Source: Verrucomicrobiota bacterium (GTDB lineage: Bacteria > Chlamydiota > Chlamydiia > Chlamydiales > SM23-39). From it: 64,000 nt of DNA. Positions 1-23,228 of the stretch are shown here, piece by piece. The notes under the pieces are model-generated. The model ran no database searches, had not been told where the DNA came from, and saw only the letters and a list, made by a program, of their open reading frames with translations. Each line of letters starts with the position of its first letter. Positions within the stretch are counted from its first letter, which is position 1. Position numbers and translations under genes: made by a program. The stretch is taken from assembly GCA_028873375.1 (NCBI GenBank), contig JAGWKU010000001.1, forward strand, positions 11,763 to 75,762, read 5' to 3'.

Positions 1-468
1 GCCGGGATCGTTCATCGCGTGGAACTAGAAACCATGTATGATTTTCTTTGGGGACTGGGAGCACGGGCGATTCTTTACGAGTGGGGGAATGTTTGTTTAG
101 GTGTTGGGGGGCGTTATGAGCAGTCGGATTACGGCCCTGTTTGGATGACGGTCGATGGGGCTGCTAAATCGGCCAATGGGACTCTTCTTCATTGGAGCGA
201 GTGGCAAATTGATCTCGCCATTTCTTATGCGATTGATATTTTTACTCCTTATTTAGGGGTGACTTATACCAATGCCAAGGCAACATTAGGAACCTTTACT
301 ATGGCTATTGCGGGGGACGACTCAGGGAATAATAGCTTCAAAAATCGAACTCCCGTAGGAGTTTGCATCGGATGCTCCTTAAGCACAAGTAAGTTTTTCA
401 TGCTCAACGTAGAAGGACGCCTCATTGACGAAGAAGCTGTTACTATTTCAGGCGACTTTAGGTTTTGA
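1..468 (+). CDS. Chlamydial MOMP-family outer-membrane porin, C-terminal part (5' end outside window)
   Basis: The frame-1 ORF is open to position 1. The segments WQIDLAISYAIDIFTPYLGV and VEGRLIDEEAVTISGDFRF resemble the conserved MOMP C-terminus as I recall it (FTPYIGVKW ... ETRLIDERAAHVNAQFRF). The terminal Phe is typical of OM beta-barrels. Confidence 0.75.
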   Translation, partial: AGIVHRVELETMYDFLWGLGARAILYEWGNVCLGVGGRYEQSDYGPVWMTVDGAAKSANGTLLHWSEWQIDLAISYAIDIFTPYLGVTYTNAKATLGTFTMAIAGDDSGNNSFKNRTPVGVCIGCSLSTSKFFMLNVEGRLIDEEAVTISGDFRF

Positions 469-1195: not shown

Positions 1196-1254
1196 CTTTT
1201 GCTTTTTAATTCGACAATCTCTTATCCTATTTAGGTTCATCAATAGGCTTTTTT

Positions 1255-2541
1255 ATGAATCGTTGGATTTTGTTCTCTGCTTCTTGTTTCACTTCCCTCC
1301 TTGCTGCTCAACAAGCCGCTATGCCTCTTCCTATGAATCAGGTGGCTCAAGTTGCCGATGTTCAATATCAAGAGAAACAAGAAGAAAGCGACATGGACGC
1401 CCTCCGTCGCTGGTTACAAGACAAACGTTTTATCAGCTTGAAAGAAACTGGTGGCGATCTCACGATCAGCGGAGAAGTTCGCACCGAATGCCAATACATC
1501 AATGAAAAATCAAAAGCGCAAGGTTCCTCTCAGTACATTCAACAAAGAGGCCAGGGATCTCCTTTAGATAAGCCGAATTTAGTATGGGACGTGGAATTCA
1601 ACTTGATTCTCGACTATCGCTCAGACCGCGCCTGGGCTGCAATGAAATTGGAATTCGATAACGACATGGGAACAAGAAGCGGAACGGTGAATAAGATCCG
1701 CTTAGAAAAGGCCTATCTTGGTGGACGCCTCATTGCGGGCGATACGCTGACCTGGGACGCCGAAATTGGCCGCCGTTATTTGTCTAATGCTTTCGATTCT
1801 AAAATCGAGTTTGGCTCTCTCTTTGATGGCTTGCTTTTCCGCTTTGGTAAGGCGTTTGAAGAGATTGGCGACTTCTATGCAAATCTGGCTGCTTTTCTCA
1901 TCGATGACCGAAACAATAGTTACGGCGAAGTGATGGAGTTAGGAGCGTTAGGTGTTGCTAATACAGGTCTTAACTTGAAATATTCGATCATTAATTGGTT
2001 CAAGCCTGGTATCGACTCAGACAACCCGAATCGATGGAGATTCCTTGTAAATCAATTTTTGGTCTCTTATCAGATGTATCCAGAATGGCTGGGCAAACGC
2101 TACATCAAGTTCTACGGAGCAGGCCTCTTTAACGCATTAGCTCAAGATGTAGTTCAGACTGGGTATAACAAACAGCAATCTGGTTGGTATCTCGGTACTT
2201 CGATTGGAGTTGTAAAAAAAGCGAGAGACTGGGCCGTCGATGTTAACTTTCAGTGGGTCCAAGCACAAGCGATTCCCGATGCCGATGTCTCCGGAATTGG
2301 TCGAGGAAATGCAGCAGGAGTCGGCTTCTATAGCAACCCTATTTCTGGCGGCGCTCCCACAACTCAATCAACAGCGGTAGGGAACTGCAATTATTACGGA
2401 ATGGAAATTGAAGCTCTCTATGCCTTTACCGACAATCTCACATTGCTTCAGAACCTCAAATGGGCCAACACGTTGGATACTGACATTGGACCTAATTTGA
2501 AATACAAGCAGTGGGAAATTGAGTTTATCTACGCTTTCTAA
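1255..2541 (+). CDS. Outer-membrane beta-barrel porin-like protein (428 aa)
   Basis: ATG start with signal peptide MNRWILFSASCFTSLLAAQQA. Alternating amphipathic segments and the C-terminal EIEFIYAF (terminal Phe) fit a beta-barrel. It is the third OMP gene in a row. The family is not recognised precisely. Confidence 0.6.
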   Translation: MNRWILFSASCFTSLLAAQQAAMPLPMNQVAQVADVQYQEKQEESDMDALRRWLQDKRFISLKETGGDLTISGEVRTECQYINEKSKAQGSSQYIQQRGQGSPLDKPNLVWDVEFNLILDYRSDRAWAAMKLEFDNDMGTRSGTVNKIRLEKAYLGGRLIAGDTLTWDAEIGRRYLSNAFDSKIEFGSLFDGLLFRFGKAFEEIGDFYANLAAFLIDDRNNSYGEVMELGALGVANTGLNLKYSIINWFKPGIDSDNPNRWRFLVNQFLVSYQMYPEWLGKRYIKFYGAGLFNALAQDVVQTGYNKQQSGWYLGTSIGVVKKARDWAVDVNFQWVQAQAIPDADVSGIGRGNAAGVGFYSNPISGGAPTTQSTAVGNCNYYGMEIEALYAFTDNLTLLQNLKWANTLDTDIGPNLKYKQWEIEFIYAF

Positions 2542-2555
2542 GAACCCAAATCATT

Positions 2556-2575
2556 CCCCGTCCTTTAGGGCGGGG
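2556..2575. terminator. GC-rich hairpin between convergent genes (possible bidirectional terminator)
   Basis: CCCCGTCC-TTTA-GGGCGGGG forms an 8-bp stem including one G.U pair. It sits 15 nt after the porin stop and 16 nt after the minus-strand MFS gene stop. No clear U-tract follows on either strand. Confidence 0.45.
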
Positions 2576-2590
2576 TTCATCTGGATAGGT

Positions 2591-4321
2591 TCAAGCTTCT
2601 TTCGAAAAATTGAGCGCGATCTGTTTTTGATACCACTTGAAAAAGAGGAATCGTTTGGAGATCCGCTCTTTTTTTCCATGTACAAAAGCAATCGAATAGT
2701 TCATTTTTACAAACGCTTTTTTGTACATTTCGATCATTTCACGACTATCTGTCCGTCGATGAAGAAAGAGGCAAACTGAGTTATTCTTGGCTTGAAATTT
2801 TTCAATTTGATCAAAGAGCTTTCTAAGAGCGCGGCGCTCTCTGAGTTCTGGTGGCACAATTCGAATGGAATCGATGAAGCCATTGACCCAGGGAAATTTC
2901 TTGAAATAAGCATCTGGCAGTAAGATTTTTAAATTAGGCAGACACGAAGAAAGTAGAATCGCATCCCACCATGAGTTGCTTTGCAAGACGACCAATGTAG
3001 AAAGAGGTGGGATTGGAGAAGTGAGAATCAGTCGCCGAAATCTTTTCAAAATTTTCTTCACGAAGAAGGGAAAAAAAAGGGAAGAGAGGCGACCTGCCAT
3101 GATCAAATTGATGAAGAAAGCAAAGATGCCCATTAAAAAGAAACCGCTAGAAGCCGAAAACCCCAATTCTTCGCTGATAAAATAAAGGCAGAAAGCAGCC
3201 ATCAACACACCAAGAAAACTACAGAAATTCGCTGTAGCGATCACTTGTCCTCGTTTTTCATCTGGGCTGTGAACCTGGATGAATGCATCAAAAGGGATCA
3301 AATAAGCACCCCCAAACATTCCCAACAAACCGAGCCAGATAATGGTCATGATGAGAGAAGAAGAGGTCAAGTGAAGGGCCATGAGGAAAAGAGCGAGAAA
3401 AAAACCTGCAATGCAAGAAAGGCCTGGTTCTACTTTGTCTTTGGAAAGCTGGCCTGCCAATACAGCTCCTATAGCAATTCCCACTGCGGTCGAAAGAAAG
3501 AGATACCCTCCGCCTACTTCGCTCAAATTGAGTGATTGCATCGCAAAAGGGATGATGTTTAATTGCGTAAACGCTCCACAAAAGAGAAAAAAGGAAGTTC
3601 CAAAGATTGCTGGCAGTAGATGGGGAATTTGCCAGCTCATTCGCAACGTGTCATAAATTTCGTAAAGGAAAAAAGGATTGATCTTTTTAGGAGAATTTTG
3701 AGGGGCAGTGCGACCGATTCCTAGAGAGGCGACAAGACCTGCCACCGCAATGAGAACGCAAAAAATAGCCTCCAGAATAAAATTTTTATCCGTGATGTCG
3801 ACTATGAAAGAGGCCAAAAAAGTGCCTAAAATAATCGCCAGATATGTCAAAGAGGTCATCGAGGCGTTGGCTTTAGAGACCATTTTCGATTCTACCAGCT
3901 CAGGAATGACGCCATACTTAGAGGGGCCAAAAAGAGCGCTTTGGGCGGCCATGAAAAAAAGGGCCGTATAGGTGCCGATATGAGATTCAAAATAAACAGC
4001 GGCCAATCCAAATACCATAATGAGCAGCTCGAGAATTTTGGCAAATACGATGATCGTTCGCTTACTGATCCGATCTGCTAAAACACCTGCTCCGGCAGAA
4101 AAGAGAAGAAAAGGAATTACAAAGATTGCGCCCGCTAAAGAGAGAATTGTATTAGCGGAAGCGGGACCTTCTATATTGATGAGAAAATAAATAACGAGAA
4201 GTTTGAAAATATTATCATTGAGAGCGCCCAAAAATTGCGTCACATTCAAAAGATAAAAAGAGCGATAATCGGTATGAAAGAACCAACGCAATGCCGCCTC
4301 TTTTTTTATTTTAGGGCTCAA
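2591..4321 (-). CDS. MFS transporter (LplT-like) fused to a C-terminal PlsC-type acyltransferase-like domain with degenerate catalytic motifs
   Basis: The first ~400 aa carry many hydrophobic helices and the MFS-like signature GVLADRISKR. The C-terminal ~170 aa resemble lysophospholipid acyltransferases, but the H(X4)D box reads SNSWWD and the FPEGTR box reads FLHRRTDS. TTG start at 4321. Confidence 0.6.
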   Translation of the reverse strand: MSPKIKKEAALRWFFHTDYRSFYLLNVTQFLGALNDNIFKLLVIYFLINIEGPASANTILSLAGAIFVIPFLLFSAGAGVLADRISKRTIIVFAKILELLIMVFGLAAVYFESHIGTYTALFFMAAQSALFGPSKYGVIPELVESKMVSKANASMTSLTYLAIILGTFLASFIVDITDKNFILEAIFCVLIAVAGLVASLGIGRTAPQNSPKKINPFFLYEIYDTLRMSWQIPHLLPAIFGTSFFLFCGAFTQLNIIPFAMQSLNLSEVGGGYLFLSTAVGIAIGAVLAGQLSKDKVEPGLSCIAGFFLALFLMALHLTSSSLIMTIIWLGLLGMFGGAYLIPFDAFIQVHSPDEKRGQVIATANFCSFLGVLMAAFCLYFISEELGFSASSGFFLMGIFAFFINLIMAGRLSSLFFPFFVKKILKRFRRLILTSPIPPLSTLVVLQSNSWWDAILLSSCLPNLKILLPDAYFKKFPWVNGFIDSIRIVPPELRERRALRKLFDQIEKFQAKNNSVCLFLHRRTDSREMIEMYKKAFVKMNYSIAFVHGKKERISKRFLFFKWYQKQIALNFSKEA

Positions 4322-4606: not shown

Positions 4607-7564
4607 ATGTCGGAGCAGATTCTTCTCTTTAGTCATTCTCTCGATCAATTGGTTGATGAGCTAGCAAATCAGCTGGCCCTCACTACTCTTTTTTCGTCTC
4701 CTTTGATCATCATTCCCCACCTTTCCATGAAAGAATGGCTACAAATCGAGCTTGCTAAGCGGGCAAAAAATCGAGGAGTAGCTGCGCTCCATTTTGCTAC
4801 TTGGCAGCAAGGAATTCAACGGTTGACAGAGCCATTGCCAACTCCAAGTCGGGCTGAATTATTTGCGGCGATTTGGATAGCCTTAAAAGAGGAGCCGCCT
4901 ATTCAGTGCCAACCTTTTTTAGCGACTCAGCGAAAAATGCTCGATTTTGCAAATCGCTTGGCCGCTGAATTTTGGGAAGGCAGCTTGTATGGGTTCGTAC
5001 AAGAAGAGAGTTGGCAGAAACTTTTTTTTGATAAAATTTTCAAAATCCATCACTGGCTACCTCTTTATCTTGCAATAGAACAAGCGCCAATCGATGATTC
5101 AACACCTCTTTTTCTCTTTGGAATCGATTTTTTGCCTTCCGCCGTGCATCAATTTTTTTGGAAGCATCCAACCTTGAATGTCTTTCGCTTTTCTCCCTGC
5201 GCTATGTTTTGGGAAGACATTCGCTCAGTTTCTGAACAGAAATCCATCTTGCGCCAATGGAAACGGAAAAGGGTCTCATTGAACCGTTTAGAGTCGCTCG
5301 AGGGATTGCTTCGCGAAGGTCAACCACTTCTTGCTAACTGGGGTTTTATCGGTCGCAAAATGTTGGGACAACCTATCGAAGAAGAGGTTCAAGTTTTTGA
5401 AAATTATGAACTTAGAGACAAATGTAAAGCGGCTTTACATTTAATTCAGGAAGATTTTTTGTTACTGCAAACGAGAGAATCAACCCCTTTAGATGACTCG
5501 ATTCAATTGATCCAGGCGGGAGCTTCTAAACTGCGCGAAATCGAACTGCTTCGGGATGAGGTGATCCGTTTAGCGGCTAACGGCTTCTCTTTCTCTGAAG
5601 TGCGGGTTTATGCGCCTGACATCGATGTATATGCCCCTCTGATCCAATTTGTGTTTAGTGATCCTATTCAGTCCATTCCGTTTCGCATTGCGGGACTTAA
5701 CCTCTCTTGTCAAAGCCCCTTTTATCAAGCGCTCACTCGTTTATTTGACTGTGTAACCGGTCGATGGAGTGCGAAGGATTTGCTCGTCCTTTTCGAGAAT
5801 CCCTCTTTTGCTTGTAAAGCCAGTTGGAAAGAGGAGGATTTAGAGCAATTGCGCTCGTGGGTTGAGTATGCGCATGTTCGCTGGGGAATCGATGGGGCTC
5901 ATAGAAATGAGATTGGAGCTGAAAATGTCGAAGCTCCCACTTCTTCTTTAGGTAGTTGGGAAGAAGGTTTTGATCGCTTGATCGATGGATGGCTCTTTTT
6001 GCGTCCGGAGCGCGAGGATTTTATCCAGTGGAGCAATGCTGATTTATTTCAACATTTCTGCAATGTATTCCATGGATTGCGGAGCACGCTGGCTCCTTGG
6101 AAAAGAGAGCGCTCATTGAAAGAGTGGGCCGATGAAATTTCTGAATTAGCGACTGCCTACCTTGTTTTAAACGAGGACTTGGAATCAGATACAGCGGCGC
6201 ACAAGGATTTCTTTCGTTTTTTAGAAACTCTGCGTCATGCCCAAGAGGCCTTTCCTAATCAGACATTTCCCTTTTCGTGGGTTCGAACTTTGTTCTCTCC
6301 TTCTACTCTAGGTACCCAGGGAAGATCTCTTTTGCATGGCGTTTCATTTGCCTCTCTTGAACCAGGTGCTGTTTTGCCTGCTCGGGCTCTATTTTTGATT
6401 GGTTTAGATGAAGAGAGCTTTCCTCGAGCACCCTCTTTTCTCCGCTCTACAGAGGCGCCGCAGCAAAATCAATGGGATCGCTATCTATTTTTAGAAGCAG
6501 TATTCGCAGCCAAAGAGCGGCTGATTTTTAGTTATTGCCACCGCTCTAAAGAGGATGGTAAAGCCGTCAGTCCTTCTCTTCTGATTCAAGAGCTTTATAG
6601 CTATTTGAATGCCTCTTTACCGGAGGTAGCTCCTCCCGCGTCTTCGATTGATCCGCGTTGCTTTACAGGAAATGGCGCCTCTCTTTCTGATTACCACGTC
6701 GCTCAAGCAGCTCTCTCACCAACTCCTCATGCTCTGTTTTCTAATATGGAGAAAGTGCCAGACGAGGCGATGCCTTCTCATGCAACGCTGACTCTCGGAG
6801 AGCTCAATCGTTTCATGAGGCATCCGTGGCAGAATTATTTACAGGAAATCGTCGGCCTAGAATTCAAAGAAGAGAGCGAATCAGAATGGAAAGACTTTGA
6901 ATTTTCTCCTCTTTTTCAACATCGCTTCCTTCAAAAAGCTTTGCAAGGTCAACCAATAGAAACAGGATTTCCATTGGGGCTTTTGGGAGAAGAGGCAAAA
7001 CGTTCGATGGAAGAGAAGGTTCGTGAATACAAAGCTCGCTTGCGAGAATGGAATATCTCTTCGATGAGCGAAAGAAAGGGAAAGCTAGTTTTGAAATGGG
7101 AAACATCCACCATTCGCTTGATTGGATCTGCTTCATTGGCAGTACCAGATGGCTTGCTTTACATTGGCGACGATTCGATTCGAGGAATGCTTCGGAGGTG
7201 GCCTGAACTTCTTTTTAGTTTAGCATACAGTGAGACCCGTCGTATTTATTGTATGCGGAGCGGTCGAGTGAGAGAAGTAATAGAACCGCTTTCTTCCCTC
7301 CAGGCGATTGTAGAACTCTATTATCGATGCCGTTTTTTACCTCTTTTTTTACATCCCGATTGGGCCGATGAATTGCTACGCAAAGGAGTCTCTCCCGATC
7401 GAGACTGTGACGATCCTCTTCTCGAATGGACTTTGGAAAGAAGCTCCTCGTTTGATTTGCAAAAAGAACAAATTACTTGGAGAGAAACGTTAGAAAAGAC
7501 CTTCACCTCTTTGATTTCTTTATTCCCCACTCGAAAATCGAGAGGTGCTCATGCAGAAGTTTGA
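4607..7564 (+). CDS. recC: Exodeoxyribonuclease V gamma subunit RecC
   Basis: The length (~985 aa), the N-terminus MSEQILLFSHSLDQLVDELANQL (compare E. coli MLRVYHSNRLDVL) and the position directly upstream of recB-recD support the call. I start at ATG 4607, not the ORF-track start at 4391. Confidence 0.85.
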   Translation: MSEQILLFSHSLDQLVDELANQLALTTLFSSPLIIIPHLSMKEWLQIELAKRAKNRGVAALHFATWQQGIQRLTEPLPTPSRAELFAAIWIALKEEPPIQCQPFLATQRKMLDFANRLAAEFWEGSLYGFVQEESWQKLFFDKIFKIHHWLPLYLAIEQAPIDDSTPLFLFGIDFLPSAVHQFFWKHPTLNVFRFSPCAMFWEDIRSVSEQKSILRQWKRKRVSLNRLESLEGLLREGQPLLANWGFIGRKMLGQPIEEEVQVFENYELRDKCKAALHLIQEDFLLLQTRESTPLDDSIQLIQAGASKLREIELLRDEVIRLAANGFSFSEVRVYAPDIDVYAPLIQFVFSDPIQSIPFRIAGLNLSCQSPFYQALTRLFDCVTGRWSAKDLLVLFENPSFACKASWKEEDLEQLRSWVEYAHVRWGIDGAHRNEIGAENVEAPTSSLGSWEEGFDRLIDGWLFLRPEREDFIQWSNADLFQHFCNVFHGLRSTLAPWKRERSLKEWADEISELATAYLVLNEDLESDTAAHKDFFRFLETLRHAQEAFPNQTFPFSWVRTLFSPSTLGTQGRSLLHGVSFASLEPGAVLPARALFLIGLDEESFPRAPSFLRSTEAPQQNQWDRYLFLEAVFAAKERLIFSYCHRSKEDGKAVSPSLLIQELYSYLNASLPEVAPPASSIDPRCFTGNGASLSDYHVAQAALSPTPHALFSNMEKVPDEAMPSHATLTLGELNRFMRHPWQNYLQEIVGLEFKEESESEWKDFEFSPLFQHRFLQKALQGQPIETGFPLGLLGEEAKRSMEEKVREYKARLREWNISSMSERKGKLVLKWETSTIRLIGSASLAVPDGLLYIGDDSIRGMLRRWPELLFSLAYSETRRIYCMRSGRVREVIEPLSSLQAIVELYYRCRFLPLFLHPDWADELLRKGVSPDRDCDDPLLEWTLERSSSFDLQKEQITWRETLEKTFTSLISLFPTRKSRGAHAEV
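5420..5442. repeat. Palindromic repeat AAATGTAAAGC-g-GCTTTACATTT, copy inside recC
   Basis: Perfect 11-bp arms with one centre nucleotide. It is read in frame as KCKAALHL. Confidence 0.95.
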
Positions 7565-10500
7565 TTGCCTTGCAGCCTCGACTCCTGTACTCGGCCCCCA
7601 TTTTCTCGAAGCTTCTGCAGGCACAGGAAAAACCTTTGCGGTCGAACACATCGTTGCGCGGCTTCTGCTGCATGAATCTCCCATGGAACTGGAACAGATT
7701 CTCGTTGTTACGTTTACTCGGGCGGCGGCTCGCGAACTCAAATTGAGGATTCGTTCTAATATAGAGCGGATTGCTCGCGGCCAACTGGTCCCATGGGAAT
7801 ATTTAGCCGCATGCAAGGACCCCTCGTCTGTTCGACAGCGGATGAGCGATGCTTTGGCCGCGTTTGATCGGTGTCAGATCTATACCATTCACGGTTTTTG
7901 CTCTCGGATGCTTCGCGAGTTTTCCTTTGAGGCTGGGATTGGCTTTACATGGAAGGAATCTTTTTCCTCTCCTCGGCTTTTAGCGGCTTTACAAGACTTT
8001 TTTGAGATGAAGCTGTCTAAGGAAGTCGTCAGTCCCGAGCAACTGGGCATTGTTGTTCGATGGGCAGGATCGGTGGAAGAATTGGGTCGCAAGCTCAAAA
8101 AAGCGGCCAAGATAGTGCCTGCAAAATTTTTTCGCGATCGAGAGGAAGAGTTTGCTGCTCTGTTGCAAAGCCGATCTCCTGAAGAATTGATTTCTCTAGC
8201 TCAAGAATTCGAAGCAGTAAAGTCGCTGTACAAAGCTGAAGTGAAAGGAGACTTTAAAGGACAGATAGAAGTTCTGAGCTCGTTCGATTGGGAAGCTGCA
8301 TTTCGAGAGTTGATTCGGCATAAAGGGACTCTTTTTCTCTATCTTGCCCCAGAGAATCGAAAAGTAAATGCAAAGGGATCTATGCCTCATCCTTTTTTCG
8401 ATTGGGGCCGGAAAACCTTATTGCCTCTGATCGAATCGGCGGCAGATCCTCAAGAAATTTTCCAACAGCTTCTTGCGGTTTGGAAACCCATTGAATTTCG
8501 GATTGCACAGGAAGAGGGGATTTTAAATCCCGATCAATTGCTGAGCACTATGGGTTCTGCTATCCAGCAAGAAACTTTTCGAAACAGTGTGCGAGGAAAA
8601 TATCGAGCCGTTCTCATCGATGAATTCCAAGACACCGACCCGATCCAGTGGGATATTTTCCAGGCCTTGTTTCTTCACCAAGTAGAGGCTCTTTATTTGA
8701 TCGGCGATCCCAAACAATCCATTTACCGGTTCCGACAAGCTGATCTCTATACCTATTTAAAAGCAAAAGAGACGATTGCTCCTCATTGTCACTTCCACCT
8801 AGATACCAATTTTCGTTCTTCCAAAGAATTGATTGGGGCTTTGAATCTCCTCTTTGATCGGGAGTGGCTTAAGTTGCCAAAAGAAGGGCGCACACTCCCC
8901 TATCTTCCTGTGCGGGCAGGTTTAGACCTTTCAACTGACTTTAAAGATGGGAAGGGAGCGATCCATTGCCTCTTGTTTCAAGAAGAAATTTCGGAGCTTT
9001 TCCCCTATCTTGTGCAGGAAATTAGAAATCTGAGAGACCAAGTTGTTTCGCTGAGCTCGTTTGCCGTATTGGTCAAAGATCGATACCAAGCAGCCGCTGT
9101 GCAGCAGGCGCTTGCCATTGCTGGAATTTCGAGTATGGCTAAGAGCCAAGAACCTCTTTCTGAAACGCTCGCTTTTGAAGCGATGGAAGAGTTGTTTGAA
9201 GCTCTTCGGGAGCCAAGACATTTAGGGAAAGCGAAGGTTGTTTTAGCAGGCCCTTTTGGAAGATATGCTGCAGAAGAACTACAACGGGTGGAAGAATCTC
9301 CTTTCGTAGAACTGCGGGCTATTCTGGAAGAGAAAGGATGGACAGCGGCTTGCCAAGCCTTTTTAAAAATGCGCTCCAAAGGGAAGACAGTCCAAGAAAA
9401 CATGGCTTTACAAGGCCGCTCCTTCTATGCCGATTGCCACCAAGTCTTTGAAGTTCTTTTAGATTGGGAGCGAAGAGAGGGCTTTTCCTTTGAGGGATTG
9501 GGTCGATTCTTTGATTCTCTTCATCGGATGGATCCTGAAGAAGCGCCTTGCCAGAGGAAAGATTCTGATGCGGAGGCCGTCCAAATCATGACAATGCATG
9601 TGAGCAAGGGGCTGGAATTTGATGTGGTATTTGCATTGGGCTTGGGAACGAGAACTCCAGAGTGTGATGTAGAGGCAGAGGCAGAAAAATTAAGACAGTT
9701 ATATGTAGCGACTACTAGAGCTAAACGGCGGCTTTACATCCCGATCCCTACGAGCTTGAAAAAAGCAGAAATGGGGACTCATGCCCCCATTGAGCTCTTT
9801 TGTGAAACATTGGGATCTTGGAAGGAAGAGCTTCGCCGTTTATCAGGAGAGGCGAGTTTGTCGATCGAAGAATTGCCCTCTCTGGTTGCCGTAACTCCTC
9901 CCTTTCATTTTACTCCTTCTCTTGTTCCTCCTGCCTTCCAGTTACCCTCGGTATCACCTTCCTATCTTCTCTCTTTCACGGCGCTGGCAAAAGAAACTTC
10001 TCTCAAACCTCTGGCTTCTATCGCTGACCCACAAGGAAATTATACAATTCATAATTTACCGAGAGGTCCAGAAACAGGAGTCGTTCTCCACGCGCTTTTT
10101 GAATGGATCTATCAAGAAAAGCAAGCTTGGAAATCTCCTGAACGAATCCAAGAAATCGTAGAGCAAGATCTTCCGGCTCTCTTTTCTCCGTGGAAAAAAG
10201 CGATTCTCCAAATGATCGAAGAGACGCTTACTTTCCGTTTGCCTATGGGGTTTTGCTTGCGCGATGTAAAGCCAGGAAATGTCCTCGTTGAAACAGAGTT
10301 TGTCTTTCAATCGCAGAAGAATTTTCTGACGGGATTCATTGATCTTTTGTTTATTCATGAGGAGAAGGTATATTTCGTTGATTGGAAGACGAATTGGCTT
10401 GGCGAAGATGCAAGCCATTATTCAGAGCCAGAGTTAAAAGCAGCCATTGCTGCGCATCAGTATGACTTGCAAGCTCGCATTTATAGAGAAGCATTAGAAC

Positions 10501-16146: not shown

Positions 16147-17340
16147 ATGATTTTTTTTGAACATGTAATAGAAGGCCCTCCCGATGCCGTCTTTGGGTTG
16201 ATGGGAACATTTCGAGCTGATCAAAGACCCGAGAAAATCAATTTAATGGTCGGAATCTACAAAGATGAGCATCTCAAAAGCGAAGTGATGCCGGTAGTGA
16301 AAAAGGCGAAGGAAAAAGTGCTCGCCTCTGATCAAATGGCCGATTATTTGCCTTTTGACGGGGCTCCCCAGTTCTTTGAGTCCTTGGGTAAATTGGTCTT
16401 TAGAGAATGGGGGAACGTCGAAGATCGGGTATATGCCACACAGGCCATTGGCGGTACAGGGGCCCTTCGACTGGGGGCTGACTTTTTGGCTCAGGAAGTT
16501 GGAAAGAGGGTTTGGATCCCGCAGCCGACGTGGGCTAATCATCGGGGAATCTTTGAAAGGGCTGGCTTTACAGTAGAGACATTGCCCTATTATAGCTCGG
16601 CCCAGCATGGGATTGATAAGAGTGCTTATTTCAAACATCTTCGCTCGCTTCCTCCAAAAAGCGTCGTTCTCTTCCATGGAACGTGTCACAATCCGACTGG
16701 ATGTGATCCTACGCTGGAAGAATGGAAAGAAATTTCTCACATCTGCAAGGAGCGTTCTCTCCTTCCTTTCTTCGATTTTGCTTACCAGGGATTTGGAGAT
16801 GGGGTTGAGGAGGATGCAGGGCCGGTGCGTCTTTTTCTCGATGAAGGACATGAGTTTTTAGTGGCTTATTCGTGTTCGAAGAACTTTAGTTTGTATTGTC
16901 AGAGGGTTGGAGCTCTCTTTGTCGTCTGCAAAGAGGCGGCTGTAAAGCCAAGAGTAGGAAGTCAAATCAAGAGAATTATCCGAACGACGTATTCCAATCC
17001 TCCTGCTCATGGGGCCAAAATTGTAGCGGAAGTTTTAAACGACCGAGCGTTGAAGGTTGAGTGGTTGAAAGAATTAGATCAGATGCGCCACCGTATTTCG
17101 CAAGCGCGCGCTTTGTTGGTCAAAAAATTAGTCGCTAAAGCAAAGAAAATCGACTTTCGATTTGTACAGCAGCACAAAGGAATGTTTTCTTATCTCGATC
17201 TAAGTCCCAAGCAAGTAAAAGAATTGATGGAGAAGCATGGGATTTACATGTTGGATAGCGGCCGGATCAATGTGGCAGGATTGACTTCTCAAAATATCGA
17301 TCGTGTAGTAGACCAGGTGATTGCGGTGAGTGAAGCGTGA
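16147..17340 (+). CDS. aspC: Aspartate/aromatic aminotransferase (class I)
   Basis: It carries the PLP-lysine motif SCSKNFSLYCQRVGAL, the GTCHNPTG block and the conserved YSNPPAHGA. Confidence 0.9.
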   Translation: MIFFEHVIEGPPDAVFGLMGTFRADQRPEKINLMVGIYKDEHLKSEVMPVVKKAKEKVLASDQMADYLPFDGAPQFFESLGKLVFREWGNVEDRVYATQAIGGTGALRLGADFLAQEVGKRVWIPQPTWANHRGIFERAGFTVETLPYYSSAQHGIDKSAYFKHLRSLPPKSVVLFHGTCHNPTGCDPTLEEWKEISHICKERSLLPFFDFAYQGFGDGVEEDAGPVRLFLDEGHEFLVAYSCSKNFSLYCQRVGALFVVCKEAAVKPRVGSQIKRIIRTTYSNPPAHGAKIVAEVLNDRALKVEWLKELDQMRHRISQARALLVKKLVAKAKKIDFRFVQQHKGMFSYLDLSPKQVKELMEKHGIYMLDSGRINVAGLTSQNIDRVVDQVIAVSEA

Positions 17341-18401
17341 AACGCTCGTTTTTCTTGTTGCCTGTCTTTCTCTTTTTGCTTCTCAGCTTGCCTGAGGGCG
17401 CCTCTAATCGTCTCCGATCGCGTACGGTGGCTTTACTGTCTCCTTTTTGGAAATTAGGCGATGCGGCTCGAAAGCCTCTCGTTCCGGTGGCCCCTGTTTC
17501 TTCTCAGGAAGTGAATAGCTTGCAGTTGGAAAATCATCAATTGCGAAGCCAGCTCGATCTAGTTTACGAATGGCTGAGTTCAGAAAAGCGGTTGCGCGAT
17601 CAAATCGATGTGTTTCGCGAATTGAAGGGAGAGCCCAAGGAATTCATTGAGCGACGGACGAAGGAGATGAAAGCTCTCCTTCAAAAACAAGCGATGGCGG
17701 CCTTTGGACGGATCATTTATCGCGATCCGAATTCATGGAGCAGCAGCTGCTGGATTGATGTGGGAGAAGAGGATAATGAGGCGCTCGGTCAGCCTATTGT
17801 GGCCAAGAATAGCCCTGTTGTCGCAGGCGCTTCTTTGGTCGGCATTGTGGAGTATGTAGGCAAACGACATTCTCGAGTGAGACTCATCACCGATTCAGGA
17901 TTGAAAATTGCAGTACGAGCTGTGAGAGGGTCGATTCAAGAGCGAGAAATGGCCTCATTGGTACATGTCTTGCTTGATCGATTGCAGAGATACTCTCAAG
18001 GGAAAGAACAGGTCGCGGTCGATGGATTGGCGCAGTTGGAAAAAAAATTCCCGGTTCGGTGGAGCGATTCTTATTTAGCAAAGGGAGAGGTTTTTGGCAG
18101 TAGCGCTACCTATTTTCGCTCTCTCAAGTCGACATTGAAGGGAGTTGGATTCAATTGTGATGTGAGTGACGCAGAAGGGCCTGCTCGTGATTTGCGAAGT
18201 GGAATTTTAAAAAAGGGAGATTTTCTCCTCACTTCCGGCCTCGATGGAGTTTTTCCTCCTGGGCTGAAAGTGGGTGTTGTCAGCTCTGTAAAGCCGCTGC
18301 GTGAAGGGGCCTTTGCCTATGAATTAGAGGCTGTTCCCTCGGCGGAGAATTTGTCTGATCTTACTTCTATCTACGTCCTCCCCCCCCTTAGCTTGGAGTG
18401 A
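17337..18401 (+). CDS. mreC: Rod-shape determining protein MreC
   Basis: An N-terminal TM and coiled-coil segment is followed by VVAGASLVGIVEYVGKRHSRVRLITDSGLKIAV and LLTSGLDGVFPPGLKVG, both typical of MreC. The GTG start overlaps the aspC stop (GTGA). Confidence 0.8.
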   Translation: MKRSFFLLPVFLFLLLSLPEGASNRLRSRTVALLSPFWKLGDAARKPLVPVAPVSSQEVNSLQLENHQLRSQLDLVYEWLSSEKRLRDQIDVFRELKGEPKEFIERRTKEMKALLQKQAMAAFGRIIYRDPNSWSSSCWIDVGEEDNEALGQPIVAKNSPVVAGASLVGIVEYVGKRHSRVRLITDSGLKIAVRAVRGSIQEREMASLVHVLLDRLQRYSQGKEQVAVDGLAQLEKKFPVRWSDSYLAKGEVFGSSATYFRSLKSTLKGVGFNCDVSDAEGPARDLRSGILKKGDFLLTSGLDGVFPPGLKVGVVSSVKPLREGAFAYELEAVPSAENLSDLTSIYVLPPLSLE

Positions 18402-19376
18402 GCCAAAGGCTTTCTCGTAGAGTTCGCGTTGAAGCGGCTCAAAATTCCTGGCTTTACATAGATTTTTCTCAATTTGAAAGAGGAGATTGCGGTCGGGATG
18501 CACCCTTTGTCCGCAGGAGTGGAGCCGGGCTAGGGGTAGGGAGGAGCGAGCAAGGAGGAACATTGGCTTTTGGAAGGCAAGAACGTCATACCCAACAGAG
18601 GAATAATCGCCTAAGTAGGCGTCAATTCGTTCAAGAAGCGGATAGACAGGAGGAAATTCATGGATGAGGAACACGTTTTCCAAAGAGGCAGTGAGTCGGC
18701 AAAATAGAGCGGGATCTCTTTGTGAAAGGAGAGGGTGGATTTTGATGAGGACATTCCAGTCGCTTTTTTGATTGAGTTGCTGGAAGGTCTCAAAAAAAGA
18801 GGTCGATTGATCGGCATCTTGCCAAGTGGGAGCGTAGAGAAGAGTGGGACGTTTGGGATCGAGGAAGGAAAAGACCTCTTTTTGGGCTGCTGCTCGTAAT
18901 CTCTCTCGATGGGTTTGAAAGTAAAGCCAACGATGATTGCCGATCATCCAGTAGTCAGGAATTTGGATATTTAACTCTTCGAGCATTTTTTTCAGCAAAT
19001 TGCCGTACAGAAGGACGCCATCTTGAGTTGCATAGGGAGCTAAAAGTGGGGTGGCATAGCCTTTATCTGATTGTCCATGAGGGCAAAAGATGAGTTCCAT
19101 TTTTTTGTGAAAGAGGGTCCGAAAGAGCTCTTTGAGGTGAGGCGCCCAATATTTGCATTCGATGAGCAGGTCGAATCGGTCGGCAATTTCTTTGAGATGA
19201 AATTCGAGATGAGTCCACCGCTCGGTAGACACTTCAGGATAATATTTTGCTGCGAGAAGTTCATTTTCTTCTTCGGTGACAATAAGAGGGATGTTGAGGA
19301 TGGAAGCGAGAGGTGCGATGTGATCGAGGAGATGGATGTCTGGTCCGGTATTGAATGCACAAGCTTTTAAAAGCAT
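18324..19376 (-). CDS. CDP-glycerol glycerophosphotransferase (TagB/TagF)-family protein, paralog 2
   Basis: Family blocks are LLYAPTWQD, LIKIHPLL and YLGDYSSVGYDVLAFQKPMF. The ATG overlaps the upstream paralog's stop by 10 nt. The 3' end overlaps the convergent mreC by 78 nt. Confidence 0.7.
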   Translation of the reverse strand: MLLKACAFNTGPDIHLLDHIAPLASILNIPLIVTEEENELLAAKYYPEVSTERWTHLEFHLKEIADRFDLLIECKYWAPHLKELFRTLFHKKMELIFCPHGQSDKGYATPLLAPYATQDGVLLYGNLLKKMLEELNIQIPDYWMIGNHRWLYFQTHRERLRAAAQKEVFSFLDPKRPTLLYAPTWQDADQSTSFFETFQQLNQKSDWNVLIKIHPLLSQRDPALFCRLTASLENVFLIHEFPPVYPLLERIDAYLGDYSSVGYDVLAFQKPMFLLARSSLPLARLHSCGQRVHPDRNLLFQIEKNLCKARNFEPLQRELYEKAFGSLQAKGGEDVDRSKIRQILRRGNSL

Positions 19377-20335
19377 GCTTCAATCCTCTCTTTTAAATTC
19401 GAAGGGACCGAATCGAAGGCGTAGGGAAAGAGGGTCGGATTGGGAGAGGGATTTTTTTGAAAGAGTTGTGAAATCTCGTTGAGTTCGATGCATTCTCCCG
19501 CCTGCATCAAAAAAGCGCTTGGGTCGCGATTAGGATCTACTTTCTCACGACATAGAAAATACATCGGGCGCTGGCAACAGAGAAAATCATAGCCGATAGA
19601 AGACATATCGCCGATATAGATGTCGGTGCGGGCAAGAAGAGGATAGATAGGAGGAAAGTTTTCGAGAAATTCGACATTGGATGGAGCTTTCCCTTTGCAT
19701 TGTTCGATTCTCGGGCTGTGGAGTCGTTCGGTATTGGGATGGAGTTTGATCAAGAGAGTACGATCTTTAGGTACTTGTTGGATGAGTTGGGAATATGCTT
19801 CCCAAAAAGTGCCATTGTTTTCGCAATCTTCCCAAGTTGGCGCATAGAGAATGAAGCGCCTTTTTCCAAACCGCTGTTCAAGCAGCTTTTCATAGAAAGG
19901 GCGGTGTTTTTCGCTGTAAACTTTCCGGAAGTTGCCAACTGAAATCTGGGGGACTGAAATGTTTTTTGCGTAGAGGACATCGCGCATCTTTTGACCATAG
20001 ACGAGCAGAAATTGTTCGCAGCCAAGGGCTTCAAAGAAGGGGCTTTTCCAGCCTTTGTCGGAAAGGCCATGAGGGAGCCACATCATTTGAACAGGAGGAT
20101 GGTGAGGGCTGAGAGCCGCTTCGAGAAGGGGGCGACTGACGCAAGTGACAAGACAGGGAGGATGGAGATCTCCCATTTTTTTTTGAATGACTTGGAGATC
20201 GGGATAATAGGTTTGGCATGCGTCGGCGATCGAATCTTCCCAGACAATCAGAGGCCAATCCATGAGAGCGCAAAAGGGGCCGAGATGATCGAGATAGTGA
20301 AAGGATTCATCAAAAATCAAACCGGCGTATTTCAT
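19367..20335 (-). CDS. CDP-glycerol glycerophosphotransferase (TagB/TagF)-family protein, paralog 1
   Basis: Blocks are ILYAPTWED, LIKLHPNT and YIGDMSSIGYDFLCCQRPMY. It is clearly paralogous to the downstream gene, including the N-terminal YLDHLGP / LLDHIAP. Confidence 0.7.
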   Translation of the reverse strand: MKYAGLIFDESFHYLDHLGPFCALMDWPLIVWEDSIADACQTYYPDLQVIQKKMGDLHPPCLVTCVSRPLLEAALSPHHPPVQMMWLPHGLSDKGWKSPFFEALGCEQFLLVYGQKMRDVLYAKNISVPQISVGNFRKVYSEKHRPFYEKLLEQRFGKRRFILYAPTWEDCENNGTFWEAYSQLIQQVPKDRTLLIKLHPNTERLHSPRIEQCKGKAPSNVEFLENFPPIYPLLARTDIYIGDMSSIGYDFLCCQRPMYFLCREKVDPNRDPSAFLMQAGECIELNEISQLFQKNPSPNPTLFPYAFDSVPSNLKERIEACF

Positions 20336-20382
20336 AAATGGTCATTTTGCAATAATAGCGAGTTCCTCGGGAGAAAAATCGT

Positions 20383-21429
20383 TTGGAAGCGTGGTTTCTA
20401 GAAAATCGTAGATCTTTTCCTTGGCGAGACAAGCCGACCCCTTATCGAATATGGGTCTCTGAAGTGATGTTGCAGCAGACGCGAGCTCAAGTTGTTGGCC
20501 CTTATTTTGAACGGTGGATGAAGTTATTTCCCGATATAGTGACTCTCGCCGCAGCGCCTCTTGAACAGGTCATCAAGGCATGGGAAGGACTTGGCTATTA
20601 CAGCAGAGCGAGAAATTTGCATGCAGGAGCGCAGCAAGTGATGCGCGAATACAACGGTGAGCTCCCCTGCTCAAAAGAAAAATTACTGTCGATTCGAGGG
20701 CTCGGGCCTTATACTGTTGGAGCAATTTTAAGTTTTGGCTTTCATCAGCGAGCAGCTGCGGTAGATGGAAATGTAGAGCGAGTTGTCACTCGATATTTCT
20801 GGATTGCTGAAGATGTCAAAAAAGTGGCGACAAAAAGAAAAATTGAACAGGCAGCAGAAGGGTTGTTGAATCGAGAACAGCCTTGGGTGACTGCAGAGGC
20901 ATTGATTGAATTGGGTGCAACCATATGTTTACCTAAGCCGCGGTGCGAGGCGTGCCCTTTGCGAATGAGCTGCCAAGCGCATGCGAAAGGACAAGTTGAT
21001 TCGCTTCCATTGAAACCAATACCGCCCAAGATTGAAAAGATTGTAAGAGGAGTTGCGATTGTCGAAGCCGAAGGGTGTGTTTTGCTCCGAAAAAATCCAG
21101 AAGGACAGCTAATGGGAGGTTTGAGCGAATTTCCTTACTTTGAGGGAAAGCAGACGTTACGAGCGGTTCAAAAAGAGCTTGAGGGATTGCTTGGAAAAAA
21201 ACTGGAACTCATGAGTCGGCTACCGCCTGTGGAACACTCGTTTACTCGGTTTAGCGCCCATTTATTTCCTTTCCATTTTCGATTGAAGAAAAAGGTTGAT
21301 CATCCCTCTTTCCCATGGGTTCCTATTGCAGAATTGGCACAGTATCCCTTTTCTTCAGGGCATCGAAAAATATTTCTCGAGCGTTGCAATTTTTGGCGCT
21401 CCTATGGTTTGCTCGAGAGCAAGTCATGA
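20383..21429 (+). CDS. mutY: A/G-specific adenine DNA glycosylase MutY
   Basis: It has FPWRDKPTPYRIWVSEVMLQQTRAQVV, the helix-hairpin-helix LSIRGLGPYTVGAIL, the 4Fe-4S Cys cluster C-x6-C-x2-C-x5-C (CLPKPRCEACPLRMSC) and a C-terminal NUDIX-like domain. The TTG start is the only in-frame start after an upstream stop. Confidence 0.9.
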   Translation: MEAWFLENRRSFPWRDKPTPYRIWVSEVMLQQTRAQVVGPYFERWMKLFPDIVTLAAAPLEQVIKAWEGLGYYSRARNLHAGAQQVMREYNGELPCSKEKLLSIRGLGPYTVGAILSFGFHQRAAAVDGNVERVVTRYFWIAEDVKKVATKRKIEQAAEGLLNREQPWVTAEALIELGATICLPKPRCEACPLRMSCQAHAKGQVDSLPLKPIPPKIEKIVRGVAIVEAEGCVLLRKNPEGQLMGGLSEFPYFEGKQTLRAVQKELEGLLGKKLELMSRLPPVEHSFTRFSAHLFPFHFRLKKKVDHPSFPWVPIAELAQYPFSSGHRKIFLERCNFWRSYGLLESKS

Positions 21430-23228
21430 GAATATTGCATTTAGAAGCATCTCCCGGGTGGGGAGGACAGGAAATTCGGATTCTGCGCGAAGCAGAAGGA
21501 ATGCGAGCGCGTGGTCACGAGGTCTTTTTTGCAGTCACGTCGAACGGCGCATTAGGACTTCACGCTAAATCGGCTGGATTTACATCGTATCTCCTTCTTT
21601 TTAAAAAGCTTGCATGGCCATTTACGCTGTTTCGATTGCTGTGGATTTTGTGGAAACATCAAATTGATCTCGTCAATACACACTCTTCCCTCGACGCCTG
21701 GATTGGGGGCATTGCAGCTCGCTTGGCAGGAAAAAAAATTCTTCGCACTCGCCATCTCTCTACCCCGGTAAAAAATGGCTGGAACAGTCGAGTTGTTTAT
21801 GGGACCTTGGCTGATTTTGTAGTGACCACGTGCTCGGGCGTGATTCCTTCACTGTCCCAGCAATCGGAAAAACCAATTTCTCTTTTTTGCTCTGTAGCGA
21901 CAGGAGTGGATCCTACGAAAATCCAGGTTAATCGGGAAGAAGTGAGAGAGTTCCGAAAGAAATGGGGCATAGAATCGACCGATTTTTTAGTAGGGACTGT
22001 TTGTTTCATGCGCTCGTGGAAAGGGATTGAAGACTTTCTTAAAGCTGCAAATGCTCTTCGCGAAGAAAAGGGATTGAAATGGGTCATCGTAGGCGGCGGC
22101 CATGCAGAAAAATATCGGGCGTTGGCAAAAGAGATGAATCTCAACTCTATTGTTTATTTTACGGGACATTTAGAGCAGCCTTTCCCAGCGATCGCCTCAT
22201 TAGATGCATTTGCCCTTTTGAGTACCGCGCATGAAGGAGTTTCACAGGCGATTTTGCAGGCGGCTTACTTCAAAAAGCCATTGATTGCGACGGCGACAGG
22301 CGGACTATGCGAAGTTTGTTTGGATGGAAAAACGGGAATTCAAGTTCCTTCTTTTTCTCCCACAGAAGTCGTGGCTGCCGTTCGTAAATTAAAAGAAGAT
22401 CGCTCCCTTTGTCATCGTCTAGGAGCACAGGCACATCAATTAGTTCTCGAGCAGTTTACGTTCCAACGGACGCTCGATGAAATGGAAACTATTTATAGGA
22501 GAATGAGCATGAAAAACGAATTGGACTGGAAAGAGAGAATTTTACAGTATTATTTTTTTCATAAAAATAAGGTGTATACCTACGCTGGAACAGCTCTCGG
22601 ATGTGCTGCCCTTATCATTGCCTATTTGACGACAGGCCCCAGTGGAGCTGAAGTCGTAAAAGCAAGAGTTGCTTTCGAAGAATGGAAAAAATCTCCAACG
22701 GATGAAAAGTTGGCTAAGAAGATGCATCAGTCGCTTCGAAAACTACCTGGATTGGAGCGGGCAGTCGAAGCAGAAATTGCCCAGACATTGCTAGCGGTAG
22801 GAAGCGTGGAAAAGGCGGAGCCAGCAATTCAAAAGTGTGTTGCTCGACTGAAAGAAATTTCTCCTCTTCATGCTTCTTTTGCAGAGACGAGTTTGCTCAT
22901 TGAGAAACGGCAATATCAAGAGGCATTAGAAAAAGCGGTAGCGCTCAAAGAAGTGATTGAAAAGACATTGGATAGCAAGGTGTGGAAAAGCGATCGTTTG
23001 CAAGGGGGCTCAGCGCTCTATGTATGTAATTTATTGCGGATTGCTTGTCTGCAAAAGCAGCTCAATAATGGTCCTGGCGAGCTCGCTGCTTTAGAAGAAG
23101 TGAAAGGACTATTAGAAGTAGATGGAGAATCTTCAGCAGCGGCTCAATTTCTACAAGCGAATTTTACGCAGAAGTCGTACTCGCTCGCCGATTATATTTC
23201 TCTGCGAGAACGAACGATTGTTCGTTAA
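21426..23228 (+). CDS. Family-4 (GT-B) glycosyltransferase fused to a ~240-aa C-terminal TM/helical domain
   Basis: The ATG overlaps the mutY stop (ATGA). The N-terminal ~360 aa start MRILHLEASPGWGGQE and contain EGVSQAILQAAYFKKPLIATATGGLCEVCLDGKTGIQV, typical of GT4. The ORF then continues without a stop through MKNELDWKERILQYYFF, one TM helix and a helical region. Confidence 0.75.
   Translation: MRILHLEASPGWGGQEIRILREAEGMRARGHEVFFAVTSNGALGLHAKSAGFTSYLLLFKKLAWPFTLFRLLWILWKHQIDLVNTHSSLDAWIGGIAARLAGKKILRTRHLSTPVKNGWNSRVVYGTLADFVVTTCSGVIPSLSQQSEKPISLFCSVATGVDPTKIQVNREEVREFRKKWGIESTDFLVGTVCFMRSWKGIEDFLKAANALREEKGLKWVIVGGGHAEKYRALAKEMNLNSIVYFTGHLEQPFPAIASLDAFALLSTAHEGVSQAILQAAYFKKPLIATATGGLCEVCLDGKTGIQVPSFSPTEVVAAVRKLKEDRSLCHRLGAQAHQLVLEQFTFQRTLDEMETIYRRMSMKNELDWKERILQYYFFHKNKVYTYAGTALGCAALIIAYLTTGPSGAEVVKARVAFEEWKKSPTDEKLAKKMHQSLRKLPGLERAVEAEIAQTLLAVGSVEKAEPAIQKCVARLKEISPLHASFAETSLLIEKRQYQEALEKAVALKEVIEKTLDSKVWKSDRLQGGSALYVCNLLRIACLQKQLNNGPGELAALEEVKGLLEVDGESSAAAQFLQANFTQKSYSLADYISLRERTIVR

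Follow-up and report, generated by a model that had tools for sequence, protein, structure and literature searches.

Two adjacent genes, here called A and B, were analysed in a 64,000-nucleotide stretch of DNA (the window) from contig JAGWKU010000001.1 of the metagenome-assembled genome (MAG) GCA_028873375.1. Gene A (19367..20335, minus strand) encodes a protein of 322 amino acids (aa) and gene B (18324..19376, minus strand) a protein of 350 aa. The ATG of B lies upstream of the stop codon of A, so the two genes are transcribed in the order A then B with reading frames that overlap by 10 nt (19367..19376), which suggests a single transcript and translational coupling of the two products. A scan of positions 18000-20800 for sigma-70-like promoters found none and is uninformative. 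A and B are paralogous proteins, 32% identical across 269 aa (E 2e-44), and the open reading frames (ORFs) bear out an earlier note on this DNA that had described 18324-20335 as two overlapping paralogs of the TagB/TagF family. The sequence blocks quoted in that note (LYAPTW, LIK(I/L)HP and GD(Y/M)SS(V/I)GYD) were read from both translations as YAPTW (19832-19846 in A and 18822-18836 in B), K(L/I)HP, and GD(M/Y)SS(I/V)GYD, the last being GDMSSIGYD in A (19586-19612) and GDYSSVGYD in B (18585-18611), all on the minus strand. Signal peptides and transmembrane segments are lacking in both proteins, the pIs are 6.0 (A) and 6.9 (B), and the maximum hydropathy is low. Judged from these properties, A and B should be soluble and act in the cytoplasm.

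Both proteins belong to the Pfam family PF04464 (Glyphos_transf), the profile against which the earlier note had proposed that they be checked. The scores of 49.5 bits for A (E 4e-13) and 41.1 bits for B (E 1.5e-10) exceed the gathering score of 22.1, and membership in the family is far above chance. The matches of both proteins span only profile positions ~192-294 of 367, which correspond to the C-terminal Rossmann half. The family call itself was already known from public annotation pipelines, in which the proteins are named 'CDP-glycerol glycerophosphotransferase family protein' (CDP, cytidine diphosphate). The NCBIfam equivalogs for TarF (NF041712) and TarL (NF041713) give 13-18 bits with A and B where the cut-offs are 550 and 1000, respectively, and with scores so far below the cut-offs the two proteins are distant members of PF04464 and orthologs of no characterised enzyme. 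When a profile built from 26 relatives was searched against the PDB only TagF-family chains were matched, namely TarL (8va1, 1.8e-8), Bcs3 (5e-6), TagF (3l7i/j, 1e-5), and Cps3D (9e-5). The AlphaFold2 model of A, computed with 76 sequences, has a mean predicted local distance difference test (pLDDT) score of 95.3 and a predicted template modelling (pTM) score of 0.92, and consists of two Rossmann-like halves of alternating strands and helices. A Foldseek search of the PDB with this model returned TagF, TarL, Bcs3, and Cps3D at E values of ~1e-9 to 4e-8 with TM scores of ~0.6. Additionally, 1.84 billion representative proteins were searched with a profile, which gave 423 clusters at E <= 1e-30, 650 at E <= 1e-10, and 4138 at E <= 1e-3, counts that describe a discrete subfamily of moderate size. 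Together these results place A and B in a distinct short subfamily of TagF-like (PF04464) GT-B phosphotransferases.

Relatives of the pair were collected by a homolog scan of one genome per GTDB species with tblastn confirmation, which gave at least 354 relatives; taxon names were read from the best 80 records, and neighbouring genes were analysed in ~85 related loci (L numbers), in all of which ORFs were called. Among the best 80 records nearly all that carry a name belong to the Chlamydiota (Parachlamydiales, Rhabdochlamydiaceae, Simkaniaceae, Anoxychlamydiales, and Neptunochlamydia). A large number of further records go by 'uncultured bacterium' or 'bacterium' alone, and several that are named for other phyla (Verrucomicrobia, Acidobacteria) show the chlamydial synteny too. 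Genuine outliers are one spirochaete MAG and two actinobacteria, the latter matching the C-terminal 100 residues only. No Chlamydiaceae member of the subfamily was found among the best 80 loci, and Chlamydia trachomatis is not known to have a PF04464 protein.

Most of the loci hold two adjacent family genes, A then B, and the overlapping layout seen in the window is also present in L001 and L004. The pair, tail to tail with mreC and divergent from mutY-GT4, is found again in Parachlamydiales, Rhabdochlamydiaceae, Simkaniaceae, and Anoxychlamydiales MAGs. B shares 51-62% identity with its second-position counterparts in L005, L066, L070, and L059 (51% for L059). A neighbour-joining tree (BLOSUM62 distances, no bootstrap) splits the first-position genes (clade A, 50 leaves), to which gene A belongs, from the second-position genes (clade B, 54 leaves), to which gene B belongs. 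Since the two clades are separated by position, the gene must have been duplicated before these chlamydial families diverged, with both copies retained since. A third clade (C), sister to B, is represented by a single gene after pyrH-frr-mcsA-mcsB in Parachlamydiaceae (compare L085 8380-11086, L040, L045, L046, and L051) and has a member in the cultured Parachlamydia acanthamoebae UV-7 (P0205). In Simkaniaceae two or three copies of the family are found (L075, L063).

The PF04464 enzymes are functionally defined by two invariant histidines, as described in a cryo-EM study of TarL (PMC10901376). The first (H444 in TagF, H300 in TarL) activates the acceptor hydroxyl, and the second (H584 in TagF, H433 in TarL) contacts the alpha-phosphate and aids the departure of cytidine monophosphate (CMP); P395 of TarL, within Y-A-P-T-(W/F), has a role in the cytidine pocket (PMC10901376). 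The same study assigns a donor signature to the polyol loop, which carries P-L in the transferases of glycerol-phosphate, whereas in those of ribitol-phosphate it is longer by one residue and carries G-A-F; TagB has a variant of the glycerol motif, 'G-S/A-L' after the catalytic histidine (PMC10901376).

Conservation of these positions was counted over 124 full-length relatives from the retrieved loci, with both paralog clades included. H89, G90, D93, K94, P166, H199, and D243 (numbering of A) are invariant in 124/124, S245 is kept in 123/124 and S246 in 121/124, so that both the D-Y-S-S motif and the proline of YAPT(W/F) are retained. H199 of A (in KLHP, residues 197-200, 19736-19747, minus strand) aligns with the KMHP of TarL and the RMHY of TagF (phmmer; 3l7i, 8va1) and is the counterpart of TagF H584 and TarL H433, and the same holds for H214 of B (in KIHP, residues 212-215, 18732-18743, minus strand) by its alignments to 8qoy and 8va1. 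The putative catalytic base H89 of A lies in the segment PHGLSDKG (residues 88-95, 20051..20074, minus strand), to which PHGQSDKG of B (residues 99-106, 19059..19082, minus strand) is equivalent. In a MAFFT L-INS-i alignment with canonical actinobacterial TagF-like proteins (L083/L084) and two bridging spirochaete homologs (L081), H89-G90 of A and H100-G101 of B align with the canonical V-Q-T-W-H-G-T-P-L-K of L083/L084. H89 follows strand 83-86 of the AlphaFold2 model, and its equivalence to TagF H444 and TarL H300 is taken from the sequence alignment only. Given the invariance of the catalytic residues in 124/124 relatives both paralogs look catalytically competent, and the possibility that A and B are pseudo-enzymes was rejected, these residues being invariant in both clades.

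The putative polyol-binding loop of the subfamily (S92-D93-K94 in A) differs from those on record. In the sequence H-G-x-S-D-K the serine is kept in 121/124 relatives and the aspartate in 124/124; the glycerol motif 'PL' is missing, and the loop is one residue shorter than that of TarL and has no 'GAF'. The subfamily has no extra N-terminal domain of the polymerase type and carries a conserved N-terminal (H)xxDH motif. By these sequence features A and B look neither like strict glycerophosphotransferases (no PL, equivalogs missed) nor like the known ribitol-phosphate transferases (no GAF). As a side observation, the title of PDB entry 3l7m names the TagF mutant 'H548A'; counted along the phmmer alignment, residue 548 is the arginine of YAPTWR and the conserved histidine of R-M-H-Y is residue 584, so the title probably stands for H584A with two digits transposed.

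Like A and B, the Gram-positive enzymes TagB/TarB, TarF, TarK/TarL, and TagF (3l7i-m, 8va1; PMC10901376) belong to PF04464, have a GT-B fold, and share the C-domain catalytic histidine, by sequence alignment also the N-domain one, the YAPT(W/F) cytidine pocket, and the D-Y-S-S motif; in the Gram-positive systems several paralogs act in sequence, which would be a further likeness to the pair. The differences are an identity of only 12-16%, the replacement of WH by PH and of PL or GAF by SD, the additional (H)xxDH motif, and the missing N-terminal domain, by which A and B are not polymerase-like. No TagO/TagA/TagGH/LCP context was seen in a Pfam scan of the larger ORFs of the window, and the host is a diderm with lipooligosaccharide (LOS). 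The earlier note had associated the family with Gram-positive teichoic acid synthesis; this is too narrow, as Gram-negative capsule systems use PF04464 too (PMC5974469, PMC10299916, PMC11666461). One of these, formed by Bcs1 and the CroT domain of Bcs3 in Haemophilus influenzae type b (Hib), is Gram-negative like the chlamydial system, and CroT is a compact TagF-like GT-B module similar in size to A and B (family profile E 5e-6, Foldseek E ~1e-8). Unlike Bcs3, A and B are free-standing, duplicated, and unfused to a phosphatase or ribosyltransferase, and unlike the Hib system they lie outside a group-2 capsule cluster with KpsMT/KpsCS and have the S-D loop.

The outer end of chlamydial LOS is Kdo. 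A plausible model for action on LOS is offered by the 'transition transferase' Cps7A/Cps3A of Actinobacillus pleuropneumoniae, a TagB-like PF04464 protein that places glycerol-3-phosphate on the Kdo of a glycolipid (PMC11666461). Cps7A resembles A and B as a small single-domain PF04464 enzyme of a Gram-negative organism that primes a Kdo-terminated lipid, a likeness drawn from its description and not from sequence. In contrast to A and B, Cps7A draws its CDP-glycerol from the product of a linked GCT gene (Cps7B) and has a LicD-type polymerase (CpsC) as its partner, and neither gene was seen here.

A candidate donor pathway was found next to members of the family. In three of the related loci a neighbouring gene encodes a protein, 441 aa in length, in which an IspD-like cytidylyltransferase (Pfam 6e-46) is fused to a short-chain dehydrogenase (SDR; adh_short, 6e-35). 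The fusion passes the NCBIfam model NF001183, D-ribitol-5-phosphate cytidylyltransferase, with 169.9 bits against a cut-off of 166, and the best PDB matches of a relative are TarI-type ribitol-5-phosphate cytidylyltransferases (6xhp, 4jis), ahead of true IspD. The same two-domain build, IspD-like cytidylyltransferase plus SDR reductase, is found in H. influenzae Bcs1, a characterised CDP-ribitol synthase (PMC10299916). In L043 (Parachlamydiales) the stop codon of the Bcs1-like gene overlaps the start of a TagF-like gene, and two glycosyltransferase-like genes come after the latter; in L072 the Bcs1-like gene comes directly after a TagF-like gene on the same strand; and in L059 it lies 1.7 kb from the 51%-identical ortholog of B, with two GT8-like genes in between. 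Homologs of the fusion number 3347 at E <= 1e-20. All 120 that were listed are full-length with ~50% identity, and those of the 120 that carry names are Chlamydiota MAGs or JGI entries called 'ribitol-5-phosphate 2-dehydrogenase / D-ribitol-5-phosphate cytidylyltransferase'.

Four genomes with an A-B pair beside mreC also hold a Bcs1-like gene, located on that contig or elsewhere in the assembly: OY970364.1 (pair in L014, Bcs1-like gene in L087), JAJFMF010000008.1 (L032 and L088), contig_64020 (L023 and L092), and assembly JAFEGV01 (L065 and L091). In 4/4 of these genomes the Bcs1-like gene lies just downstream of mcsA-mcsB (L087-L092, ~5000-9400). The slot after mcsA-mcsB is thus occupied by the clade C TagF-like gene in Parachlamydiaceae and by the Bcs1-like gene in the A-B genomes. 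Unlike in Hib, the donor gene of the chlamydiae is unlinked to the pair in most genomes. As judged from sequence, chlamydiae with the pair are predicted to have a CDP-alditol pathway of the ribitol and not the glycerol type, and this pathway is genetically tied to the subfamily. The earlier note would have abandoned its interpretation if the genome held no CDP-alcohol donor pathway; in related genomes such a pathway is predicted.

Other nucleotidyltransferase and nucleotide-sugar genes were seen in the related loci. An NTP_transf_3 gene is convergent with clade C in four Parachlamydiaceae loci, and an NTP_transf_3 gene of 43% identity stands beside the TagF-like homologs of the spirochaete MAG. 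The gene near clade C is a lead only and is not evidence for the A-B pair. The spirochaete locus (L081, 2-3160 and 8200-9261) has two short TagF-like genes with the intermediate motif F-H-G-T-S-D-K-P, so the short subfamily and a nucleotidyltransferase partner exist outside the Chlamydiota. In L088 a nucleotide-sugar block (CTP_transf_3 and epimerase, RmlD-like, RmlC-like; 373-3452) lies ~5 kb from the Bcs1-like gene.

The reading that we favour, with a probability of roughly 0.6, is that A and B are sequential CDP-alditol phosphotransferases that build or decorate an envelope glycoconjugate. By analogy with TagF and TarL, the histidine of the N-terminal domain (H89 of A, H100 of B) would deprotonate an acceptor hydroxyl, the acceptor being a membrane-anchored glycan or lipid, and this hydroxyl would attack the beta-phosphate of a CDP-activated polyol. 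The histidine of KxHP in the C-terminal domain (H199 of A, H214 of B) would help CMP to depart, leaving an alditol-phosphate joined to the acceptor through a phosphodiester. The most likely division of labour between the paralogs is sequential, with a primer followed by an extender, on the pattern of TarB/TarF/TarK/TarL. The donor is more likely to be of the CDP-ribitol type than CDP-glycerol, and would come from the Bcs1-like enzyme encoded after mcsA-mcsB. The expected product is an alditol-phosphate decoration or a short teichoic-acid-like chain on an envelope glycoconjugate, for which the acceptor could be Kdo at the end of LOS, a glycolipid product of the GT4/TPR protein encoded nearby, or a lipid-linked or peptidoglycan precursor.

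A number of results weigh against this reading. The Pfam and PDB sequence matches of A and B are confined to the C-terminal half, and in the Foldseek search with the model of A UDP-GlcNAc 2-epimerases score equal to TagF, so the fold supports GT-B but cannot discriminate the family. The tryptophan that stacks on the catalytic histidine in TagF and TarL is a proline in 115/124 relatives. The S-D loop has the length of the glycerol type and fits neither the ribitol signature GAF nor the glycerol signature PL; with a loop outside both known signatures, the donor may be a third CDP-alcohol. The Bcs1-like gene stands beside a family member in only 3 of the ~85 loci, and its linkage to the A-B pair is a co-occurrence in four genomes to which no statistic is attached. 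Within the 64-kb window no cytidylyltransferase gene was found, nor any mcsAB, Bcs1-like, TagD-like, or NTP_transf_3 gene. Genes for an exporter, a ligase, or the synthesis of the acceptor were not identified; a general Pfam scan of the ~45 larger ORFs of the window detected no TagO/TagA, TagGH, or LCP families, the search not having been extended to the whole genome.

The public annotation, taken literally, would make A and B CDP-glycerol glycerophosphotransferases of the TagB/TarF kind that add sn-glycerol-3-phosphate, with a TagD-type gene elsewhere in the genome, and the earlier note had used the same name. PF04464 membership and the automatic names agree with this, the size of the proteins is nearer to the primases TagB/TarF than to the polymerases, the spacing HG-x3-K is that of the glycerol type as in WHGTPLK (PMC10901376), and the TagB-like Cps7A adds glycerol-phosphate to Kdo in a Gram-negative (PMC11666461). 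However, PL is replaced by a conserved S-D, the TarF/TarL equivalog scores (13-18 bits) fall far short of the cut-offs (550-1000), and the donor genes found beside family members are only Bcs1-like (3 loci) or NTP_transf_3 (four chlamydial loci and the spirochaete). A tblastn search with the B. subtilis TagD sequence found no TagD-like gene in the window or the 85 loci, a weak negative as the query was approximate. 'Glycerophosphotransferase' is best regarded as a family label here, and actual use of CDP-glycerol appears unlikely.

Chlamydiae with LOS make CMP-Kdo. The proteins might be GT-B glycosyltransferases that use a CMP- or NDP-sugar such as CMP-Kdo and add a sugar in place of a polyol-phosphate. 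The HP motif and the CMP-binding GT-B fold also occur in CMP-sugar transferases, the fold search fails to separate TagF from other GT-B proteins, and the polyol loop is atypical; there are also weak matches to the NCBIfam model 'BFO_1060 family glycosyltransferase' (E 7e-4 and 0.025) and one relative (P0089) with a precomputed match to Capsule_synth (PF05159). Against this, every significant sequence match is to a polyol-phosphate transferase, both family-specific histidines, YAPTW and D-x-S-S are kept, and operon linkage is to a gene of the CDP-alditol-synthase type. A sugar donor is in our view quite improbable.

The neighbourhood of the pair bears on the acceptor. Downstream of B, mreC (17337..18401, plus strand; Pfam MreC, NCBIfam NF011450) is convergent with B, and its 3' end overlaps that of B by 78 nt (18324-18401); L001 and L004 have shorter tail-to-tail overlaps, of 21 and 17 nt, respectively. 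The recurrent convergent overlap leaves no room for an intergenic terminator between the two genes. The adjacency is weak functional evidence, since the genes are convergent and not co-transcribed. It could be taken to mean that A and B are an accessory of the MreB/MreC wall machinery that modifies lipid II or peptidoglycan, a proposal about the acceptor that is compatible with alditol-phosphate transfer and that would explain the peptidoglycan modifications of Protochlamydia. The overlap with mreC is kept in many loci, and chemical modifications of unidentified nature have been recorded in Protochlamydia peptidoglycan (Pilhofer 2013, cited in PMC5814848), but the proposal is very doubtful given the convergent orientation without co-transcription, the high synteny of chlamydial genomes through which adjacency can be inherited, the presence of the genes in Simkaniaceae when no sacculus could be isolated from Simkania (PMC5814848), the position of the third clade after mcsAB in Parachlamydia, and the lack of an LCP-type ligase or TagGH-type exporter in the Pfam scan of the window.

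On the other side of the pair, mutY (20383-21429) is divergent from A and is followed by a gene for a GT4 glycosyltransferase (21426..23228, plus strand; Pfam Glycos_transf_1, Glyco_transf_4) fused in frame to a transmembrane segment and a TPR-like domain, which is likewise divergent from A-B. The earlier note had placed the pair next to mreC and opposite the GT4 gene; mreC is indeed adjacent and the GT4 gene is on the other strand, and mutY intervenes between A and the latter. The GT4 reading frame extends over 21315-23228 (plus strand), with the start probably at the ATG at 21426, overlapping the mutY stop at 21429. In most related loci the transmembrane and TPR-like part is a separate gene downstream of the GT4 gene (compare L004 7101-8940, L008, and L016), and the continuity in the window is either a genuine fusion or the result of a stop codon lost in the MAG. 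It is possible that the GT4/TPR protein is a partner of A and B that makes their acceptor.

Within 4 kb of the family genes, mutY was found in 49 loci, mreC in 47, a GT4 or TPR-like gene in ~40, and an aminotransferase in 34. The recurring order is gspD, a 403-aa unknown, PspC-like, TPR-like, GT4, mutY, (FlgN-like), A, B, mreC, aminotransferase, rpoD, and coiA. These neighbours are housekeeping genes in a conserved order, and the idea of a dedicated glycopolymer island was rejected; the envelope-glycopolymer locus suggested in the earlier note is a conserved housekeeping synteny block in which mreC is convergent with the pair. The 169-aa FlgN-like gene (weak Pfam match, E 3e-4; L038 9467-9976) lies directly upstream of A on the same strand in 31 loci and is absent from the window, where the gap between A and mutY is only 47 bp. 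In L001 a glgC-like NTP_transferase and a 250-aa Metallophos phosphoesterase (7947-10001) precede A-B on the same strand, with the Metallophos stop abutting the start of A in the slot that mutY occupies in other loci. A GT8-like gene of 241 aa with the motif W-W-W-E-N-Y directly follows clade B genes in five loci (L066 10986-11711, L059 10837-12577, L064, and L070 among them) and is duplicated in L059, a possible sign of a glycosyl-alditol-phosphate repeat.

An NCBI MAG protein with the same sequence as A carries the label 'Verrucomicrobiota bacterium'. The window contains Chlam_OMP-like, MreC (best with the chlamydial NF011450), recCBD, rpoD, tyrB-like, gspDEF, tolQ-tolB-pal, sdhAB, gidA, and dnaB genes, and its gene order matches dozens of contigs named Chlamydiales, Parachlamydiales, Rhabdochlamydiaceae, or Simkaniaceae. 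Gene content and synteny thus support a chlamydial origin despite the label, in agreement with the earlier note. Environmental-chlamydia gene order is also seen in L037 ('Acidobacteria bacterium') and in L026 and L036 ('Chlamydia trachomatis' MAGs), and the labels of these and of the source MAG look like taxonomic mislabels. Two further features of the window were noted. A protein of 893 aa (30952-33633, plus strand) downstream of the gspDEF type II secretion genes consists mostly of MORN_2 repeats (Pfam 2e-57). The GC skew is positive in almost all 2-kb bins, with peak strength at 34-40 kb, and the cumulative skew climbs steadily without a turning point, which places the window within one replichore.

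Descriptions of the chlamydial envelope usually name LOS, a cysteine-rich protein network, and minimal peptidoglycan. No publication on a TagF-like pair or its donor link in chlamydiae was found in literature searches. What is new here is the subfamily signature, the tandem layout conserved across the phylum, and the link to a Bcs1-like donor enzyme, and the genomic case is solid, while the chemistry, acceptor, and product are proposals. Together with the CDP-ribitol-synthase-type gene of its relatives, the pair predicts an additional anionic alditol-phosphate component in the environmental (non-Chlamydiaceae) chlamydiae, a large part of the phylum. A tentative extension is that these organisms make a ribitol-phosphate-type, teichoic-acid-like polymer or decoration of the envelope (on LOS, a glycolipid, or peptidoglycan) by means of a phylum-specific short TagF subfamily, with PHGxSDK as its own polyol-binding signature, and a Bcs1-like synthase, which may underlie the modifications of Protochlamydia peptidoglycan. 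The prediction can be tested, as the cultured P. acanthamoebae UV-7 carries a clade C member. The S-D-loop subfamily, which falls outside the two known donor signatures, bears on the rules for donor specificity in PF04464. Should the Chlamydiaceae really lack this system, it would mark a loss in the pathogens. If the prediction is true, the component would be one never described chemically in the Planctomycetes-Verrucomicrobia-Chlamydiae (PVC) superphylum, it would be a candidate explanation for unexplained modifications of chlamydial peptidoglycan or LOS, and teichoic-acid-like chemistry would extend to another diderm phylum.

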